This document shows, one piece after another, positions 4,179-23,536 of a stretch of 27,333 bases of DNA. The notes under the pieces were generated by a model. The model did no database searches. It had not been told where the DNA came from and worked only from the letters and a program-made list of their open reading frames with translations. Every line of letters starts with the position of its first letter. The first letter of the stretch is position 1. Source of the stretch: Candidatus Woesearchaeota archaeon. GTDB taxonomy: Archaea > Nanobdellota > Nanobdellia > Woesearchaeales > ARS49. Where the stretch lies: the NCBI GenBank assembly GCA_003694525.1, contig RFLK01000086.1, forward strand, positions 1 to 27,333. The letters run 5' to 3'. A program made the translations under genes and the position numbers.

Positions 4179-7100
4179 TCATGCTATGTCTTTCTTGCGC
4201 TCTATGAGAAATTTCGCTATGTCATCTTTCCAGTGCTTTGGAACGCTGGATGAGAATGTTTGATTCAGCCATCGTATGGTCTCTTCTCTGAATCCTTCCC
4301 GCTCTCCATCTATCATCTTGTAGACATCGTAAACTATTTGAGGGTTTAGTTTCTCTATTCTGGCTCCTTCTCTAAACTGCAGTATGAGGGTTAATTTAAG
4401 CTCTTGCTCCCTCTCATCTTCTTCCCGCTCTTTTTGCTTCCAGTATTCTTCATAGCTGAATTCTGATACTTTAAGTTCTGGTAAAACTGATTTTAGGAAT
4501 TTTGAAAGCTCTTCTGGAAGTCTAATCTTATCGCTCTTGAGTTTTGATATCAACGCAGGATCTATCCTGGACCGCTCCCCTTCAATTATCCTTATTATTT
4601 CTGCTCTCTCGTGTATTGGAAGTTCTGTTTTGCGGGCTTCCTCGCATAGTTGGTCCTTGAATCTTTTTCGCTCCTGCCGGCTTTTTGCAACAAGCGCTCT
4701 GCAGTTTATTGCAACAGGATCTTCTCCTTTTATTTTTTGAATTATTTGCTCGTGCATTCTTCTGAGAAATTCGTATTTGTCTTCTATTCTCAGAACATCC
4801 ATATATCCTTGGAGAGCAAGGTTCAGCGCAAACGGAGATGGTATTTTTGTTTGTATCTCTTTTATCCTGATCTTTCCGCTCTCAATGTTTTCCAGAACTC
4901 TCTTTGCATTTTCAATGTCCATCAAATCTTCAAGGCATTCTCTCCTCGCTTCTTCAAGTATGCTGAAATTATCGTCAAGCCTTTTTACTGCAGAGAGCAG
5001 TATTTGGGCTCCGACTTGCTGGCGCCCGACTCTTTTTTGTTTTCCTTTGTAGTTTCTGAGTATCATAAAAGCGCGTGTTGCGCAGTGTCTGAATCTTCTT
5101 CTCAGAACCTCGCTCCTCTCAAGAGCTGCTCTCATAACATCTCCAAGCCTGTCAGATCTGAGAATTTTTAGAGCTCTTATCGCAGATATTTTTCGGTTTC
5201 CCCTTATCCAGAATCCATTATCGTTTATTCCTATTGAGACATCTTTTTTATCTATTCTTCCTATAGCATATGCAATCGCGCGGGATAGGCAGTCGTTCAC
5301 TTTTCTTCCGAATAGCGTGTGGAAGACTATTTTATCATCAAGCCCGTCATTTGTGTATTCCACGATTATCTGCTTGTCGGATGGTATTGCTTTGCAGTAA
5401 TTGTATTGCTCTTTAAAGTATGACAATATTGCGCGCGCAGCTTTATCATCGACATATAGGTATTTGTGTAAGAATTCCATTATCTCTGACTCTTTTGTTT
5501 TTGAATTCAATTTTTCAAGCATTAGTCTGCGCAGCCGTCCTATCTCCAGCGCAAGGTCAAAGCTTAATGGAAGCATTTCAGAAAACCAGGAAGGTATTGT
5601 CGGTGGCCTGTTTGCAGATGCTGCAATTTGCGCCACCATTCCTTTTGAGTATTTGAATATGTAAGTGTTTCCTCCAAGAACGAACACATCGCCAGGTTTC
5701 AGCCTTTCAACAAAACCTTCATCCAGAATGCCTATTGTCTCTTTTCCTATTTTTGCTATTATGTGGCTCTCATCGGGTATGGTTCCTATGTTCGTCATAT
5801 AGAGCATTCTTGCAAGCTTTCCTCTTTTTCCTATCCGCCCATTTTCTCTCCATATTTTTGCATACACGTGGCGGTCTTCAAGCGGTGCGTATTCTCCTGA
5901 AAGATAGCTCAATACCTTGTTGAATTGTGAAAGAGTTAGATCTTTATAGCACCAGCTTCTTTTCAAGGTTGCATAAAGTTCTCTCTCATCCCACGCCTCT
6001 TCAACGCACGCGCCTATTATGTGTTGTGCAAGAACATCCAAGGCCCCATTTGGTATGTGTACTTTGTCTATGTTTTTTTCTATTGCACTTTTGAGAAGGA
6101 CTGCGCACTCGACAAGGTCATCCCTATCCATCACTATTATTCTTGCTTTTACTCTCTCGTGCAATTTGTGTCCCGACCGTCCCGCTCTTTGCAGAAATCG
6201 CGCAACGGATTTTGGGCTTGAAAGGCAGATTACAAGATCGATGTATCCTATGTCAAGCCCAAGCTCTAACGATGTGCTGCACACAACAGCCTTAAGCTCT
6301 CCGGCTCTCAGTTTTTGTTCAATATTCCATCTCGCGCTCTTGCTCATGCTTGCGTGATGAGCTCCTATGTTTGCAGCATATCTTCCTGGAAATTTGTGTT
6401 TTAGATGATCCACCACTCTCTCTGTTGCTGCGCGAGTATTGGTGAATATGAGTGTTGTTCTGTGCTGTTGTATGAGCTCGTCTATTTTTTTGTAGAGTTC
6501 TGAGTGGACTTTTTCGTGCGTTGTGTCTATAAGGTTGTCTACTGGCGATATGACTTTGAAATCGTATTTTTTCACAAGTGTGACATCAATTATTTTGCAG
6601 GGCCTATCGCATCCTACAAGGTATCTTGCTATATCTTCAAGAGGAGATACTGTTGCAGACAGTCCTACTCTGCACAAGTGCCCGGAGAGTCTTTCTATGC
6701 GTTCAAGGGTTAATGAGAGGTGAACTCCTCTCTTGTTTTCTGCAAGAGCGTGTATCTCGTCTATTATGCACCATTCTATTGATTTGAGGTGTTCTCTGAA
6801 TTTTGGCGATGCGAGCATTATCGCGAGCGATTCTGGTGTCGTGATGAGTATGTGGGGCGGTTTTGCAAGCATTGAGCTTCTCTCTTTTTGGTTGGTATCG
6901 CCTGTCCTGACCCCTATTCTTATTCCCAGGCTCTTGCCTGCTATCTTCTCTATCTGTTCAAGTGGCTCTTTTAGGTTCTTGCTTATATCATTCGATAGCG
7001 CTTTTAGAGGTGAGACGTATACCACGTAGACTTTGTTTTGGAGCATTCCTCGTTGTGCAGAATCTACGAGCTCGTTGAGTATTGACAGGAATCCTGTCAG

Positions 7101-10938: not shown

Positions 10939-12006
10939 TTAGAATAATCCAAGGACTTTTTTCTTTCCTGCTTTCTCGAACTGTTCTATTAGCTCTTTTT
11001 GTTTTTTTGTGAGTTTTTTGGGGACTTCTATGCTGATTTTTGCTATGATATCTCCTCTTCCTCTGCCTCTCAGCTTTGGAAGGCCTCTGCCGGGAAGTCT
11101 CAATTCGCTGTTGTTCTGAGTGCCTTCTGGTATTCTTATATGCTCTTTTCCTTCAAGAGTGTCTATTTCTACTTCGCCTCCAAGGCAGGCTGTTGCAAAA
11201 GGCAGCTCAAGGTCAAATCTAAGGTCTGCTCCGTCCCTCTCAAAGCGCTTGTCCTCTCTGACGTGTACTGTTATGTATAGGTCTCCTGACGGCGCGCCCA
11301 TCTCTCCTGCCTCTCCTTCTCCTGAGAGCCTTATTTTCATTCCGTCGTGTATTCCTGCAGGAATCTTGACCGATATTGTGTCTCTCTTGCTCAGGCGACC
11401 CTCTCCTGTGCAAACTTTGCAGGGATCTTTTGCAACTGTTCCTATGCTTTTGCAGGTCTTGCAGGGAGTTGTTGTTGCAAAGACTCCAAAGGGGGTTCTT
11501 CTCGTCTGTTGAACATAGCCTTGTCCTGAGCAAGTCTGGCAAGAGGAGATATTCTTCCCTCCTCTTCCTTTGCACTCATCGCATTTTGTCAACTTTCTGA
11601 TTGTTATCTCTTTTACTGAGTCTTTTGCAATATCTTCAAGGTTTACTGTTATGTCTACTGCAATGTCTCGTCCTGCGCGGGGTCCTCTGCGTTGCGAGAA
11701 GCCGAATCCTCCGAATATGTTGTCGAATATGTCTTCAAAATTGAATCCTGAGGCAAAGTCCCTGAAGTCAAATCCTGAGAATTGCTGACCTGCGCCTGCT
11801 TTTCCGAATCTGTCGTATTGTTCTCTTTTTTGGGGATCGCACAGTACTGCCGCTGCTTCGTTTATTTTCTTGAACTTCTCCTGCGCATCGGGGCTCGAGT
11901 TTAGGTCTGGGTGGTACTTTTTTGCAAGCTTTTTGTACGCTTTTTTTATCTCTTGCGCGCTTGCATCTTTGGGCACGCCCAGTATTTCATAATAGTCTTG
12001 ACTCAC
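10939..12006 (-). CDS. dnaJ: Chaperone DnaJ
   Basis: J-domain with HPD, G/F-rich linker, four CxxCxGxG-type zinc motifs (the third is CKTCKSIG) and the C-terminal domain. GTG start. Confidence 0.97.
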
Positions 12007-12179
12007 TCAAACCGACCTCTCACCTTGTGCTCATCGCTCTCAAGAATTCTTTTTATTTCTTGTTCTGCTGATTTTATCATCTCGCGAGCTCTTCTTGCTT
12101 GTTTGTAGGTGTAGAGGATTGCAAGAAGTCCTGCAATTCCTGCAACACCTGCAAGGGCTGAGCTTGTCGATGCAATCAT
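12003..12179 (-). CDS. 58-aa single-TM microprotein between dnaK and dnaJ
   Basis: Not in the ORF track. [58 protein letters not shown]. Its ATG overlaps the dnaK stop (ATGA) and its TGA overlaps the dnaJ GTG (GTGA). Confidence 0.8.
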
Positions 12180-14026
12180 GCCTTCTCGCCTTCTATTGTC
12201 TCATCGCTCCCTGTAGCCTTTGAGTTTTCACGCTTCTCTTGGCTCTCTTGAGATTTTCCAGCGCTTGCAGCGCTCGCGTACATTTTCTGCGCTGCTGCGT
12301 GAAGAATCTTTTCGCATTCTGCAAGCTTTTCTTTTATTTTTGCAAAGTCCTTTTTCTCTTCTGCAAGGAGTTTTTTGAGCTCGTCTCTTTTGGTTTTTAT
12401 CTCTTCAAGCTGGCTCTCATCTACTTTGCCTTTAAACTCTTCAAGTTGTTTGTCGAGTGTGTAGACAAGAGTGTCTGCTTGGTTTATGGTCTCTATCTCT
12501 TCCTTGCGTTTTTTGTCGGCCTCTGCGTTTTGTTCTGCTTCCTTTCTCATTCTCTCAACTTCTTCTTCAGAGAGCTTGTTTGGAGCAGTTATCTGTATGC
12601 TTTGTTCCTTGTTGGTTCCAAGGTCCTTTGCTTTAACTTTAAGGATTCCATTCGCATCTATATCGAATGTAACTTCTATTTGAGGCACTCCTCTGGGCGC
12701 TGGAGGTATTCCGACAAGGTCAAACTGGCCGAGGATCTTGTTGTCTGCAAACATTGCTCTCTCTCCTTGGGCAACTCTTATCGTTACGGCTGGCTGGTTG
12801 TCCGCTGCCGTGCTGAATACCTTGCTTTGTTTTACTGGAATTGTTGTGTTTCTCTCTATGACTTTTGTAAAGACTCCGCCGAGAGTCTCTATGCCTAAAG
12901 AGAGTGGAGTGACGTCAAGCAACAGGACATCCTTTATTTCTCCTGCAAGAACGCCTCCTTGTATTGCAGCGCCTGATGCTACGCATTCCATCGGATCTAT
13001 TGATCTTTCGACTTTCTTTCCGACCCACGTCTCAACGCTTTTTTGAACTATTGGCATTCTTGTAGGCCCGCCTACCAGTATGACTTTGTCTATGTCATTT
13101 ATGCTCAATTTGGCGTCTGCTATTGCCTGGTCTATGCTCTTTCTGCACCTTTGCACTATGGGGTCGACGATCTCTTCAAGCTTTGCCCTTGTCAGGGGTA
13201 TGTGCAGGTTTACAGGGCCTTCCGGAGTGGATGCTATGAACGGAAGGTTGATCTCTGTTTCAAATACTGTTGAAAGCTCTATTTTTGCTTTTTCTGCAGC
13301 TTCGCGAAGCCTCTGCATTGCAGTGTTGTCTTCGTTAAGGTCTATTCCGCTCTCTTTCTTGAAGGTTTCAACAAGGTAGTTTATTAGAGCGTTGTCCATA
13401 TCAGTGCCTCCAAGTTCTGTATCTCCGCTTGTCGAGACCACTTCAAACACTCCTTCTGAGAAGTCCATTATTGTTACATCAAGTGTTCCGCCTCCAAGGT
13501 CAAAGACTAATATTTTCTGTTCCTTGTCTGACTTGTCAAGTCCGTAGGCAAGCGCTGCTGCTGTCGGCTCGTTGATTATTCTGACAACCTCAAGCCCTGC
13601 GATTGTTCCTGCGTCTTTTGTCGCTTGTCTTTGGTTGTCATCAAAATATGCCGGCACTGTTATGACTGCTTTGTTTATTTTTTCTCCAAGAAACGCTTCA
13701 GCGTCCGCTTTTATTTTCTGTAGTATGAATGCGCTTATCTGTTGTGGTGTGTATTCTTTTCCGTTTATCTTGTATTTGAAGTTTGTTCCCATCTTTCGCT
13801 TTGCAGCGTAGACTGTGCCTTCCGGGTTTGAGACTGCTTGTCTTTTTGCAGGCTCACCAACAAGCACTCTGCCGTCTTTTGTAAATGCAACATAGGACGG
13901 GAATGCTTTTCCGTAAAGTGATGCTCCTTCTGCAGAGGGTATGATTTTTGGTCGTCCTGCTTCAAGAACGCTTGCTGCGCTGTTGCTGGTTCCAAGGTCT
14001 ATTCCGATGATTTTTTCTTTTGCCAT
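12176..14026 (-). CDS. dnaK: Chaperone DnaK (Hsp70)
   Basis: [59 protein letters not shown] and [14 protein letters not shown]. It lacks the roughly 23-aa N-terminal insert of proteobacterial DnaK. Confidence 0.99.
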
Positions 14027-14622
14027 TATTCCTTATCCTCCGTATTTTCTTCTTTCTGTTTTTTTGTTTGTTCTTCCTGCTTTTTTGGTTTCTTTTTCTT
14101 TGCTATAATGACTTTTGAGTATCTGATAACCCTTCCATTCATAGTGTAGCCTCGCTGTATTTCTTCTATTATTGTGTCTTCGGGTTCATCGCTCTCTTTT
14201 GATAGTATGACTTCGTGTTTGAATGGGTCGAACACTTGTCCTATTGCTTGTATTGGTTCTACCCTCTCTTCTGATAGTATTTTTTTGATGTTCTTGTGAA
14301 TCATCTCGATGCCTGAGCGCGCAGCTGGGGGAAGGGGTTGGTTGAGTGCGCGCTCAAGGTCATCGTAGATGTTTATCAGCTTGAGTAGTATTCGCTCTGA
14401 CGCTCTGCTTGCAAATTCTGAGCGTTCGCGTTCTGTTCTTTTTGCAAAGTTCTGGTATTCTGCGTGAATTCTTTGCAATTGTTCTTTGTATTCTTCGGCT
14501 TGCGTTTTGTGTTCTGCAAGGTCTGATTCAAGCTTTGCGATTCTTGCTTTGAGGTCTTCACTCTCGCAGTCGGGCTGTTTTGTCGAGTCCATTCCTGCTT
14601 GAGTTTTATTATTGGTTTTCAC
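14026..14622 (-). CDS. grpE: Nucleotide exchange factor GrpE
   Basis: [13 protein letters not shown] coiled coil, FDPFKHEVI and [19 protein letters not shown], with a K/E-rich tail. The stop overlaps the dnaK ATG (TAATG). Start is uncertain: GTG 14622 has a GGGGTGA SD; 14634 and 14592 are alternatives. Confidence 0.95.
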
Positions 14623-14644: not shown

Positions 14645-14661
14645 GTAGACTTTAAGTCTAC
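14645..14661. promoter_or_regulatory. Perfect 8-1-8 inverted repeat GTAGACTT-T-AAGTCTAC, candidate operator of grpE-dnaK-dnaJ
   Basis: Seen directly. It begins about 25 nt downstream of the grpE TATA box, at the expected transcription start. Confidence 0.65.
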
Positions 14662-14685
14662 AAGGTAGTCTTGGAAAGCTACAAG

Positions 14686-14702
14686 TATTTAAATATTTCG
14701 CT
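14686..14702 (-). promoter_or_regulatory. BRE + TATA promoter of grpE-dnaK-orf58-dnaJ
   Basis: Minus strand reads AGCGAAATA-TTTAAATA. Confidence 0.75.
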
Positions 14703-14708
14703 TAAAAT

Positions 14709-14723
14709 AGAAAGGTTTAAATA
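14709..14723 (+). promoter_or_regulatory. BRE + TATA promoter of the DUF3467-wHTH-HD operon
   Basis: AGAAAGG-TTTAAATA, 31 nt upstream of ATG 14755. SD AAGGTGA at 14745-14751. Confidence 0.7.
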
Positions 14724-14754
14724 CTGCTTGCAACCAATTCTGTTAAGGTGACAT

Positions 14755-15105
14755 ATGGCTCAAGTAAACATGAATATAATCGAAGGAGAACCCTTCTTTG
14801 CTCACGAGGCAAGCATCAATTTCACGCCAACGCAAGTTTCTTTGGATTTTAAGTGCATAACGCCCCGCACAGATCCGAGATCTCAAAAGCCTTCTTTTCA
14901 GCTAAAGCACAACGTTGTAATGATTGACCCTTGGCACGCAAAAGAACTCATAGGTGTTTTAAGAGAGGCTGTTAAGAAGTACGAGGAAGAGTTTGGATCA
15001 ATCAAAAAGCCGAAGGCAGTTTTGAAGGCAGAAGAAAAGCAACGCGCTCTTGCCCAGCAGGCAGGAGATAGCAAGACTGCAAAATACCCCACTTATACAG
15101 GATGA
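14755..15105 (+). CDS. DUF3467-like protein, 116 aa
   Basis: FFAHEASINFTPTQVSLDF...VMIDPWHAKELIGVLREAVKKYEEEFGSI matches the DUF3467 pattern (mxPxhAKxL..L...i..YE..fGxI) by recognition. SD present. Confidence 0.75.
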   Translation: MAQVNMNIIEGEPFFAHEASINFTPTQVSLDFKCITPRTDPRSQKPSFQLKHNVVMIDPWHAKELIGVLREAVKKYEEEFGSIKKPKAVLKAEEKQRALAQQAGDSKTAKYPTYTG

Positions 15106-15500
15106 TCAGAAAAATAACCATTTGCAGTGTGAACAGGCCCCCGAGGTGTTCTGTAAATGATGAGCTCCAATGGCTTGCAAACGCTTTGGGGTTGTTTGGA
15201 GAGCGCGATCGTAATCGCTCGCGCTTTCGCATATTCGTTGAGTTGATAAAAACATCACGCACAAAGAGCGGTTTGACAAGCGACGAGCTTGCCCACCGTC
15301 TCTCGCTAACACGTCCCACTGTTGTTCATCACTTGAACGGGCTTCTTGAGCAGGGTCTCATAATTCACAGGTCAAACCGTTATGAGATGCGCGCTCAAAG
15401 GCTGCAGGAGTTGATAGAAGATCTGCGAAAGGATATGGAGCGCGCATTGGATGAGGTTAAGCAATCTGCAAGAGAGCTTGACAAGGTGCTTGGATTATGA
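15102..15500 (+). CDS. Winged-helix regulator (ArsR/TrmB-like) with a C-terminal coiled coil, 132 aa
   Basis: LTSDELAHRLSLTRPTVVHHLNGLLEQGLI HTH, followed by the heptad-rich LQELIEDLRKDMERALDEVKQSARELD. ATGA overlaps on both sides. Confidence 0.87.
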   Translation: MIRKITICSVNRPPRCSVNDELQWLANALGLFGERDRNRSRFRIFVELIKTSRTKSGLTSDELAHRLSLTRPTVVHHLNGLLEQGLIIHRSNRYEMRAQRLQELIEDLRKDMERALDEVKQSARELDKVLGL

Positions 15501-16069
15501 CTGAGGTAATTGAAGAGGGCGAATTCAAGAGCGAAAGGGTTCAACAGGCTCTCAGGATCGCGCAAGAGGCGCATGCTGGCCAATTCAGGCGTGATGGCAA
15601 AACTCCGTATATTGAGCATCCAAAGGCGGTTGGCAGAATTTTGGAGATGTCAGGATGCGATGAGGATACCATAATTGCAGGCCTGCTTCACGATACAATT
15701 GAAGATACCGATTTGACGCTCGAGCAAGTGAAAGATGTTTTTGGAGAGCGCGTTGCGCTTCTTGTTGACAGCGTCTCAGAGCCTCCTCAAAGCACCCATT
15801 CTTGGAAGGAGCGAAAAGAGCATACTCTAAGGACGTTGAAGGTTGCGCCCAAGAGTGCTGTTATGGTTGTTGCAGCAGATAAGGCCCATAATTTGCGCTC
15901 TTTGAGGACTGCTTTGGATTCTGTTGGTGAATCAATGTGGATGCGTTTTCACGGCTCAAAAGATCTCCAGAAGTGGTATTATGAAGAGATGGCAAAAGTT
16001 ATTGAGATGAGGCTAGGGCAATCTCCCATAATCGATGAAATTAAGGAACACATCAAGCACTTGTTCTAA
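15497..16069 (+). CDS. Stand-alone HD-domain protein of the RelA/SpoT hydrolase (SAH / Mesh1-like) family, 190 aa
   Basis: AHAGQFRRDGKTPYIEHP, GLLHDTIEDT and AADKAHNLRSL. No synthetase domain. Confidence 0.88.
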   Translation: MTEVIEEGEFKSERVQQALRIAQEAHAGQFRRDGKTPYIEHPKAVGRILEMSGCDEDTIIAGLLHDTIEDTDLTLEQVKDVFGERVALLVDSVSEPPQSTHSWKERKEHTLRTLKVAPKSAVMVVAADKAHNLRSLRTALDSVGESMWMRFHGSKDLQKWYYEEMAKVIEMRLGQSPIIDEIKEHIKHLF

Positions 16070-22018: not shown

Positions 22019-23536
22019 TTAATTTCCCGTTCCAGGTCCGGTGCCACCTCCGCCTCCTATTCCACCAGAGCCTCCAGGGCTTCCCCCGCCAGAGCCTCCT
22101 GAACCACCAGAGCCTCCTCCGCCAGATCCGCCACTGCCCGAACCTCCAGCAGGCACTGCTGATGATTTGCTGCCTGATTTTTTCTTAAGTGCAAATGATG
22201 CAATTGCTGCGATCTGGGCAATATCAGATACTATTGATGAGCTAAGGCGCGCTATTGCTGGATTTGTGCTTCCAACAAAGTGATCGTGATTGGCAAAGCC
22301 GTATCTTATTACGTTTCCCTCATCAAGTATTTGCTTGTATTGTTCTCTCTCATCTCCCTCCGGCTCAAAGTAGTCCTTTGAAAACGCATCCTGCCAGTTT
22401 GCAATCGTGTATGCAAAGCTTGCAAGAGGGGTTGCTGGCATTAGAATGTCTTCTATTAGCTGAACTCCTCTATTTCTTGGCGCATTTAACTCTTCAAATA
22501 TCTCTGCTATCCTGTGATATGCGTGCCTGTTCGCCTTGACAAGCTCAGAAGGATTGTCTTTTAGCGCTTCTTTTAGAGAGCTTGTATAGATGAAGATGTA
22601 TCTTGAGGCATCGTGCAGCTGGTCTGTTGTCAGTGTCCAGGAACTTCCAATATCTTCTGCCAATGAGCGGAGTCTTAGTTCTATTACTGAGTGTAGTGTT
22701 TCAAGGGTCCCATCCCAGCTTATTTCGTATTCTTTTGCGGCAAGTTCTGAATCGCTGTTCCTTATGCTTGAAAGTTTTCTCTCAAGCGCCTTCTCGTATT
22801 CTTTTTTGCCTTCAACATATAGTTCTCCCTGAAAATTCTCACTGCCCGTCAGATAGTCTTCAAGTCTTGCCCTGAGCTGATTCAGCTCATCTATTCTCTC
22901 AAAGTTTCCTTCGTGAACGACAGTGTCTGCCCAGGCCTGAGTGTAACTCTCTACTCTTTCAAGGTCTGATTTGTATTCCTTAAATGCTTGTTTTATTTTT
23001 GCATTTTCTGAAAGGATGCTTTCAAGCCTTGCCAGATCTTCGTGTTTTAATGCTTCAAATGTATTTTCAGCTATCTCTCCAAATAGCCCTTGTTCTATTC
23101 TCTTTTGCTCTTCTTCAGAGAGCTGTTCGTAATCAGGAATGTTCGCATCACACATCCTATCTGCCAGTTGAAGAAGGTATCGCTCTATTCTTCCATCTTC
23201 TTTTATGTACCCTATAAATTCAATATGGTCAAATAGTGCGTTGACTTTTTCTGCAAGTTCTGGCGTGTTTTTTGAGTGAACTTTGTATATTGCAGCTCCC
23301 CTCAGTGCATCAAGATTATTGTATGTCGAGTTGTTTCCTCTCAGAATATCAGATATTGTGTTTTCAATTGGACCAGAGTAAGTGCTTGTTTGGACTCTTG
23401 CAATAAGTTCTGAATCGTCTTCTCGTCTTGGGTAGTGTGTTCCGCTTGCGCTACAGCCTGCAAGTGCAAGCGCTGCGCTTGCGATAAATGTTATTCTTTG
23501 AGCAAGCGTTCCTTTTCGAGATCTGTATGCTGGCAT
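22019..23536 (-). CDS. Putative lipoprotein (505 aa), alpha-helical, with a Gly/Ser-rich C-terminal tail
   Basis: Basic N-region, hydrophobic stretch and lipobox LAG-C. The tail is GGSGSGGSGGGGSGGSGGSGGGSPGGSGGIGGGGGTGPGTGN. Start moved to 23536 because a TATA box (23570-23577) abuts the track's 23569 start. The stop is 1 nt before the adhesin ATG. Confidence 0.8.
   Translation of the reverse strand: MPAYRSRKGTLAQRITFIASAALALAGCSASGTHYPRREDDSELIARVQTSTYSGPIENTISDILRGNNSTYNNLDALRGAAIYKVHSKNTPELAEKVNALFDHIEFIGYIKEDGRIERYLLQLADRMCDANIPDYEQLSEEEQKRIEQGLFGEIAENTFEALKHEDLARLESILSENAKIKQAFKEYKSDLERVESYTQAWADTVVHEGNFERIDELNQLRARLEDYLTGSENFQGELYVEGKKEYEKALERKLSSIRNSDSELAAKEYEISWDGTLETLHSVIELRLRSLAEDIGSSWTLTTDQLHDASRYIFIYTSSLKEALKDNPSELVKANRHAYHRIAEIFEELNAPRNRGVQLIEDILMPATPLASFAYTIANWQDAFSKDYFEPEGDEREQYKQILDEGNVIRYGFANHDHFVGSTNPAIARLSSSIVSDIAQIAAIASFALKKKSGSKSSAVPAGGSGSGGSGGGGSGGSGGSGGGSPGGSGGIGGGGGTGPGTGN

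Follow-up and report, generated by a model that had tools for sequence, protein, structure and literature searches.

The contig RFLK01000086.1 of a Candidatus Woesearchaeota archaeon (27,333 nucleotides, hereafter the window; contig C13 of a source genome of 705 kb that is 73% complete) carries a bacterial-type Hsp70 chaperone operon, grpE-dnaK-dnaJ, on its minus strand, and divergent from it an operon encoding a DUF3467 protein, a small winged helix-turn-helix (wHTH) protein and an HD domain protein. Between the two operons, at the predicted grpE transcription start, lies a perfect palindrome, which we call O1 (14645-14661), and next to it a weak auxiliary copy, O2 (14665-14682). We consider it probable that O1 and O2 together form a double-stranded DNA operator whose most likely ligand is the wHTH protein (the product of 15102-15500) in homodimeric form, and through which grpE-dnaK-dnaJ would be repressed. 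The evidence, all of it obtained by computation, comprises the conservation of the site, its placement, its association with chaperone promoters, its synteny and co-occurrence with the wHTH gene, the co-variation of site and protein within one clade, and a modelled protein dimer.

The layout of the promoter region had been described in a sequence-only reading of this DNA, whose letters and coordinates we could reproduce. O1 is an 8+1+8 palindrome, GTAGACTT-T-AAGTCTAC, which on the grpE (minus) strand reads GTAGACTTAAAGTCTAC, or GTAGA-CTTAAAG-TCTAC when divided into half-sites and centre. The degenerate second copy, GTAG-N10-CTAC at 14665-14682 (GTAGC-N8-ACTAC on the grpE strand), lies between the TATA box and O1, and the sequence CTACAAG recurs with a period of 21 bp, starting at 14658 and 14679. 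The two divergent TATA decamers, AGTATTTAAA (14684-14693) and TTTAAATACT (14716-14725), are reverse complements of one another. The grpE promoter core (14686-14700, minus strand) consists of the TATA box TTTAAATA (14693 to 14686) and CGAAAT(A), resembling a B recognition element (BRE), from 14700 to 14694; the promoter of the divergent operon (14709-14723, plus strand) has a BRE-like AGAAAGG (14709-14715) and the TATA box TTTAAATA at 14716-14723. On the minus strand, O1 starts 24 nt past the 3′ end of the grpE TATA box.

The genome itself supplies a ruler for the transcription start. Genome-wide, 55 genes fall in a peak with their ATG 22-24 nt past the 3′ end of a strict TATA box (34 genes at 22 nt, 15 at 23 nt and 6 at 24 nt), and many genes of this archaeon are probably leaderless. 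The position of this leaderless peak places the beginning of transcription at the 23rd-25th nucleotide after the TATA box, and this ruler, combined with the 24-nt spacing, therefore places the grpE start at 14663-14661, where G 14661 is the sole purine, and O1 at approximately +1 to +17; O2 is predicted to be untranscribed. The earlier assignment of the palindrome to the grpE +1 is backed by this spacing and ruler, and O1 is predicted to overlap the transcription start in the manner of the operators of the archaeal heat-shock regulators Phr and HSR1.

Perfect palindromes with arms of this length are no rarity in this DNA. There are five perfect palindromes with 8-bp arms in the window, compared with a mean of 1.3 in block shuffles, at least one occurs in 66% of the shuffles, and the exact 17-mer of O1, present once in its own genome when up to 2 mismatches are allowed, has 84 matches in metagenome contigs, none of them adjoining grpE or the wHTH gene and all therefore taken as chance matches. 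By itself the O1 palindrome is not beyond chance, and its significance comes from conservation across genomes rather than from palindromy alone. Footprinting upstream of grpE in relatives shows that the site is conserved across the order: in a first sample of grpE upstream regions from 30 genomes of the same order, one per genus, nearly all contain a 17-bp GTTGAC-N5-GTCAAC downstream of BRE and TATA box. After extension to 80 more loci reached via the wHTH protein, a perfect GTTGA-N7-TCAAC was found within 1.1 kb upstream in 85 of 101 grpE-bearing loci, and a copy with one mismatch in 9 more. The 91 unique sites yield a family consensus GTTGA-yTTwAAr-TCAAC, in which T8 and A10, neither of which was used in selecting the sites, are each present in 90 of 91. 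Among 96 loci, the gap between the TATA box and the site measures 23-24 nt in 68 and 26 nt in 14, and the site precedes the start codon by anything from 7 to several hundred nt. When whole genomes were searched, the strict pattern gave 78 sites in 67 of 101 relatives, mostly one per genome, against 6 for a reversed control, an enrichment of approximately 13-fold; the remaining strict matches are intragenic with atypical centres, and their number equals the control level. The abundance of such palindromes and the unrelated metagenome matches would speak for a palindrome that arose by chance in AT-rich intergenic DNA. This reading is refuted by the conservation of individual positions across more than 90 independent genomes, by the fixed TATA spacing and by the enrichment over the control, and we attach virtually no weight to it.

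The half-sites of the window, GTAGA/TCTAC, agree with the family's GTTGA/TCAAC at four of five positions each, the change being symmetric at positions 3 and 15 (A3/T15), and both family hallmarks, T8 and A10, are present. Judged by these letters, the window site is a clade-specific variant of the family and not a non-member. It has the length, T8/A10 core, 24-nt TATA spacing, target operon and neighbouring wHTH family of the canonical GTTGAC-N5-GTCAAC operator, from which it is set apart, together with the sites of three relatives, by the A3/T15 variant, by clade-specific residues in the regulator and by the lack of any autoregulatory copy seen. The putative operator and repressor system is conserved across Woesearchaeales and neighbouring orders, and we have high confidence that O1 represents a conserved cis-regulatory DNA site of chaperone promoters. 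O2 probably has a counterpart as well: relatives possess a weak but conserved site 20 bp upstream of O1, to which the degenerate second copy would correspond and which agrees with the pattern at a mean of 6.26 of 12 positions, versus about 3.3 at other offsets, with at least 8 of 12 matched in 30 of 91 sequences. The window O2 has a spacer one base longer and matches the canonical pattern at 4 of 12 positions; it is a better fit to the variant half-sites. The GTAG in its left half was not counted as co-evolution, as it may belong to the family-1 ‘AGT’ pattern that follows the TATA box.

The genes found behind this site are chaperone genes. The same palindrome at the same TATA spacing precedes hsp20-grpE operons in three loci (L053, L060 and L180), groES-groEL in three others (L142, L059 and L184), one thermosome gene (L143) and one CDC48-like AAA+ gene (L182). 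From this distribution the element would appear to be specific to chaperone promoters, with a very small regulon.

The wHTH gene accompanies the site. The 132-residue product of 15102-15500 (plus strand), the proposed cognate repressor, is 40-59% identical to 23 members of a wHTH family, and in most of the relatives' loci the family's gene keeps its synteny with both grpE and the site. In genomes where grpE lies elsewhere, the wHTH gene comes with a site of its own (L178, L124, L114, L129 and site 2 of L053); in L178 this copy lies 51 nt before the ATG of the wHTH gene and 23 kb from the hsp20-grpE site. In these presumably autoregulated wHTH promoters the sites lie 2-4 nt after the TATA box. 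Of 301 genomes sampled from the phylum, 234 encode a member of the family, so the system would be present in most sampled Woesearchaeota genomes. Nine searched genomes have neither wHTH nor strict site (G001, G003, G019, G035, G060, G068, G073, G085 and G100), and the single strict match in G077, also without the wHTH, falls inside a gene. We have good confidence that the neighbouring wHTH protein binds O1. The site could instead be a real protein operator with another binder, either the DUF3467 protein, whose gene (14755-15105, plus strand) is likewise syntenic with grpE, and with the regulator gene, in many relatives, or an unlinked factor; a paralogous wHTH gene adjoins groESL in the same genome. 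Many loci, however, possess the site and the wHTH gene but no DUF3467, the site accompanies the wHTH gene where this is unlinked from grpE, loci with the variant operator also show altered residues in the recognition helix and the wing of the wHTH protein, and DUF3467 has no recognised DNA-binding domain. A binder other than the wHTH protein is therefore very unlikely in our estimation.

Within the clade of the window, regulator and site have both changed. The window regulator has Pro72 at the start of the recognition helix, a position occupied by Ala or Gly in 116 of 118 other family proteins. Its close homologues P0002, P0003, P0018 and P0019 (61-76% identity) have Asn38, Pro72, Ser/Met91 and Ser122 in common, corresponding to the clade-specific residues N38, P72, S91 and S122 of the window protein. 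All four clade promoters available contain GTAGA-N7-TCTAC, namely those of the window and of L306 (position 547), L307 (1353) and L310 (1028), in each of which the variant site is found ahead of grpE, 24 nt past the TATA box; the contigs of P0019 and P0096 are too short to include the promoter. The centres of the variant sites differ among clade members, which are therefore not recent copies of one another. Among the other regulator/site pairs, about 118 in number, 92 have a perfect GTTGA...TCAAC and none has the variant. This pattern points to co-evolution of regulator and operator, and would tie the site to this protein.

Several observations nevertheless weigh against a protein-bound operator, and one group of them favours O1 acting mainly as RNA, as a hairpin at the 5′ terminus of the grpE mRNA with the function of a stabiliser or thermosensor. 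With a start at about 14661-14663, the transcript would open with a 7-bp stem and a 3-nt loop, and the lineage-specific changes at positions 3/15, to A-T here and to C-G in L017, keep the pairing. Where one side alone of the outer stem (positions 1-5/13-17) has changed, the result is mostly compatible with G-U pairing on the mRNA strand (T3/G15 in four cases, G5/T13 in one, C-A in none). The site of L062 (1900-2170), the locus with the closest Ala72 regulator (60% identical), reads GTCGAC-GCTAA-GTTGGC and retains full pairing as RNA via two G-U pairs without being symmetric as DNA, which makes it the single example better explained by a hairpin than by an operator; some constraint on the site at the RNA level is conceivable. 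The remaining features of the site do not behave as a hairpin would. The identity of the sequence, beyond its pairing, is fixed across the whole order; T8 and A10, which would lie in the loop and cannot pair, are yet near-invariant and mirror-related; positions 6/12 and 7/11 could not form base pairs in 23-24 of the 91 sites; and both O2 and the copies at wHTH promoters lie upstream of the predicted start, hence in no transcript. Because of these four properties we take the selected object to be duplex DNA. In addition, the Shine-Dalgarno sequence is never within the hairpin, the distance from hairpin to start codon varies widely, the fold of the whole leader has a z of -0.33, there is no Rfam match, and the variant form of the operator goes together with particular residues in a DNA-binding protein. 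The 5′ RNA hairpin, which the sequence-only reading had offered as an alternative, is thus disfavoured as the primary function, and we judge it quite unlikely.

The other counter-evidence concerns the targets, two exceptional loci and the reach of the co-variation. The sequence-only reading had proposed recurrence at other stress promoters as a check on the palindrome; copies are present there in relatives, at the hsp20, groESL, thermosome and CDC48-like genes listed above, and not in the genome of the window, where a scan for variant, canonical and GTCGA types found the grpE site and no convincing extras. The thermosome, groESL and divergent DUF3467-wHTH promoters of this genome yielded no operator copy, and a perfect GTTGAC-AAT-GTCAAC at C17:8617 is inside a coding region. 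Only one of 31 genomes has the site at a thermosome promoter, and we rejected the thermosome as a general target on this ground. The heat-shock role proposed here accordingly derives from the identity of the target genes and from the promoters of relatives. L015 and L097 keep the wHTH gene, and no recognisable palindrome was found after their grpE TATA boxes, where the site may be degenerate or relocated. Finally, the co-variation represents one clade and so probably one evolutionary event, and a simple code in which Pro72 reads A3 is insufficient, given that in P0013, a more distant protein with Pro72 and Asp38, the left half-site is GTTGA and the right one is degenerate. It is plausible, although we lean slightly the other way, that this clade has undergone a natural specificity switch, in which DNA-reading residues (Asn38, Pro72 and wing Ser/Met91) and operator changed together to give a pair orthogonal to the canonical one. 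If true, the switch would prove the cognate pairing and provide the first entry in a recognition code for the first described archaeal Hsp70-operon regulator. The variant would here provide what canonical sites cannot offer, a protein and an operator that have both been altered in nature and match each other, and as such bears on which protein binds O1 and through which residues.

The AlphaFold model of the 15102-15500 protein contains a wHTH domain and a long C-terminal helix (mean predicted local distance difference test score, pLDDT, of 85.7), with a predicted recognition helix at about residues 71-84 (LTRPTVVHHLNGL) and a C-terminal dimerisation helix at residues 101-130. When modelled as a homodimer, it reached an interaction prediction score from aligned errors (ipSAE) of 0.70, the best control scoring 0.00, with runs agreeing in at least 97% of contacts and a partner pLDDT of at least 83; in calibration, 20 of 30 proteins with structures solved as pairs attained this ipSAE mark, as did 1 of 23 solved as single chains, figures that are approximate for the present case with its self-supplied alignment. 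The modelled interface is formed by the C-terminal helix (residues 99-132) together with residues 7-29. The protein therefore models as a symmetric dimer, which would fit the symmetric site. An operator for a dimeric repressor, as the sequence-only reading had inferred from the palindrome, is supported by the order-wide conservation, the chaperone promoters of relatives, the co-occurrence with the wHTH gene, the dimer model and the probable counterpart of O2 in relatives.

We infer binding, repression (as opposed to activation) and a releasing signal as parts of the following putative mechanism. A wHTH homodimer on O1 would cover the predicted grpE start, and O2 would occupy the DNA from there back to the TATA box. 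With O1 at the start and O2 between TATA box and start, TBP and TFB would be allowed on the BRE and TATA box and RNA polymerase would be kept off. The grpE-dnaK-dnaJ operon would in this way be held repressed until stress frees the repressor, for which the signal may be heat-labile binding, a mechanism put forward for Phr and HSR1, or titration of the repressor by DnaK/DnaJ or by the DUF3467 protein. Our confidence that the wHTH protein represses and responds to heat is moderate. Some archaeal wHTH or Lrs14-like proteins are activators or chromatin proteins, and the wHTH protein might bind the site as an activator or architectural protein rather than as a repressor. Its closest full-length structural matches include AbfR2 and TrmBL2, and O1 and O2 are upstream of the divergent DUF3467-wHTH promoter, on which a positive influence is conceivable. 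A site that spans roughly +1 to +17, or that comes immediately behind the TATA box where the wHTH gene is presumably autoregulated, has the geometry of archaeal repressors that exclude RNA polymerase, such as Phr (PMC9133787), and one or two sites per genome would be ill-suited to a chromatin protein. A role other than repression is therefore, to our minds, a decidedly slim prospect.

According to a 2022 review, Phr and HSR1 are the only archaeal heat-shock regulators identified (PMC9133787); both belong to hyperthermophilic Euryarchaeota, and neither covers the control of a bacterial-type Hsp70 operon in archaea. Phr of Pyrococcus furiosus binds over the start site and blocks recruitment of RNA polymerase to the TBP/TFB-promoter complex (PMC9133787); its site consists of TTTA, TGGTAA and AAAA elements over 29 bp (PMC9133787), and it is autoregulated, with targets that include hsp20 and an AAA+ (VAT/CDC48-type) ATPase (PMC9133787, PMC10746257). 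HSR1 of Archaeoglobus fulgidus recognises the motif CTAAC-N5-GTTAG and is autoregulatory and tied to an hsp20-containing operon (PMC9133787). The woesearchaeal system would be similar to that of Phr in having a palindrome over the predicted start and, in relatives, a candidate regulon that takes in hsp20, a CDC48-like gene and the gene for the regulator itself, but differs in its operator motif and in its core target, the bacterial-type Hsp70 operon. With HSR1 it has in common inverted half-sites of 5-6 bp with a 5-bp gap (GTTGAC-N5-GTCAAC in the woesearchaeal family), and it differs in half-site sequence, taxon (DPANN/Woesearchaeota) and core target (grpE-dnaK-dnaJ); a scan of the window that allowed up to 1 mismatch yielded no HSR1 motif. 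In a profile search, the best PDB sequence match of the regulator was ST1889 (2d1h, E 1.3e-7), and fold searches (Foldseek/VIA) returned generic wHTH, MarR and ArsR folds and, over the full length, AbfR2 and TrmBL2. Phr has no entry among the matches listed in the PDB sequence and fold searches, in which the Phr and HSR1 sequences were not compared directly. By analogy, then, the operator would resemble the Phr and HSR1 systems in position, format, autoregulation and, partly, regulon, with homology not detected.

Bacteria control these genes with the dedicated repressors HrcA and HspR, which act on inverted-repeat operators at dnaK and/or groE promoters, the controlling inverted repeat of chaperone expression (CIRCE) and the HspR-associated inverted repeat (HAIR), respectively. 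They are the closest functional analogy for control of an Hsp70 operon, and as here, the regulator gene is often beside grpE-dnaK-dnaJ; unlike them, the present system combines an archaeal BRE/TATA promoter with a small wHTH protein bearing a C-terminal coiled-coil helix. Scans bore out the earlier statement that the promoter has neither operator. The window contains no CIRCE at up to 3 mismatches, and there is no HAIR near the grpE promoter, the sole window match at up to 3 mismatches (12024-12044, in the dnaK-dnaJ gap just beyond the dnaJ start) being at chance level; no search was aimed at an HspR (MerR-type) gene. A search that matched 7 control genomes detected no HrcA (PF01628) in the present genome, which is 73% complete. 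Among the papers searched in full text, none dealt with this regulator, with its motif, or with DUF3467 in this context. If real, this would be the third archaeal heat-shock system and the first for DPANN and for an archaeal grpE-dnaK-dnaJ operon.

The operon downstream of O1 begins with grpE (14026-14622, minus strand), followed by dnaK (12176-14026, encoding Hsp70) and dnaJ (10939-12006), both also on the minus strand. The grpE leader contains a Shine-Dalgarno-like GGGGTGA (14637-14631, minus strand), and 8 nt past it is an in-frame GTG at 14622. This arrangement suggests the GTG, rather than the ATG at 14592, as the true start of grpE, and is a better fit to the leaders of relatives. Both grpE and the thermosome gene have Shine-Dalgarno leaders of the GGGGGTG type, unlike the leaderless genes. 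On the other side of the promoter, the regulator gene is followed by a co-oriented HD_4 gene (15497-16069, plus strand) that overlaps its end and encodes the HD hydrolase domain of RelA/SpoT only (TIGR00691 positions 1-123). The order DUF3467-wHTH-HD is preserved in L306, L307 and L310, and alarmone hydrolysis might conceivably be coupled to the chaperone switch.

The genome of the window encodes a second wHTH paralogue, 26% identical to the first, on contig C100 (4743 to 4354), where it is arranged head-to-head with groES (4902-5159) and groEL (5203-6579). Immediately behind the TATA box of the groES promoter there, from 4861, stands a palindrome unlike O1, TGCTT-gtcaa-AAGCA, and paralogue and palindrome may be a second pair of repressor and operator, for the group I chaperonin. 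At the thermosome promoters of relatives (L149-L176), many share GAACC or AACC directly after the TATA box, a stretch unrelated to the grpE operator that may be a thermosome-specific promoter element. In the window itself, three further perfect 8+1+8 palindromes, TGACAGGA-A-TCCTGTCA, TGAGCTGA-T-TCAGCTCA and GCAAGCGC-T-GCGCTTGC, are located at 7083-7099, 22873-22889 and 23466-23482, respectively.

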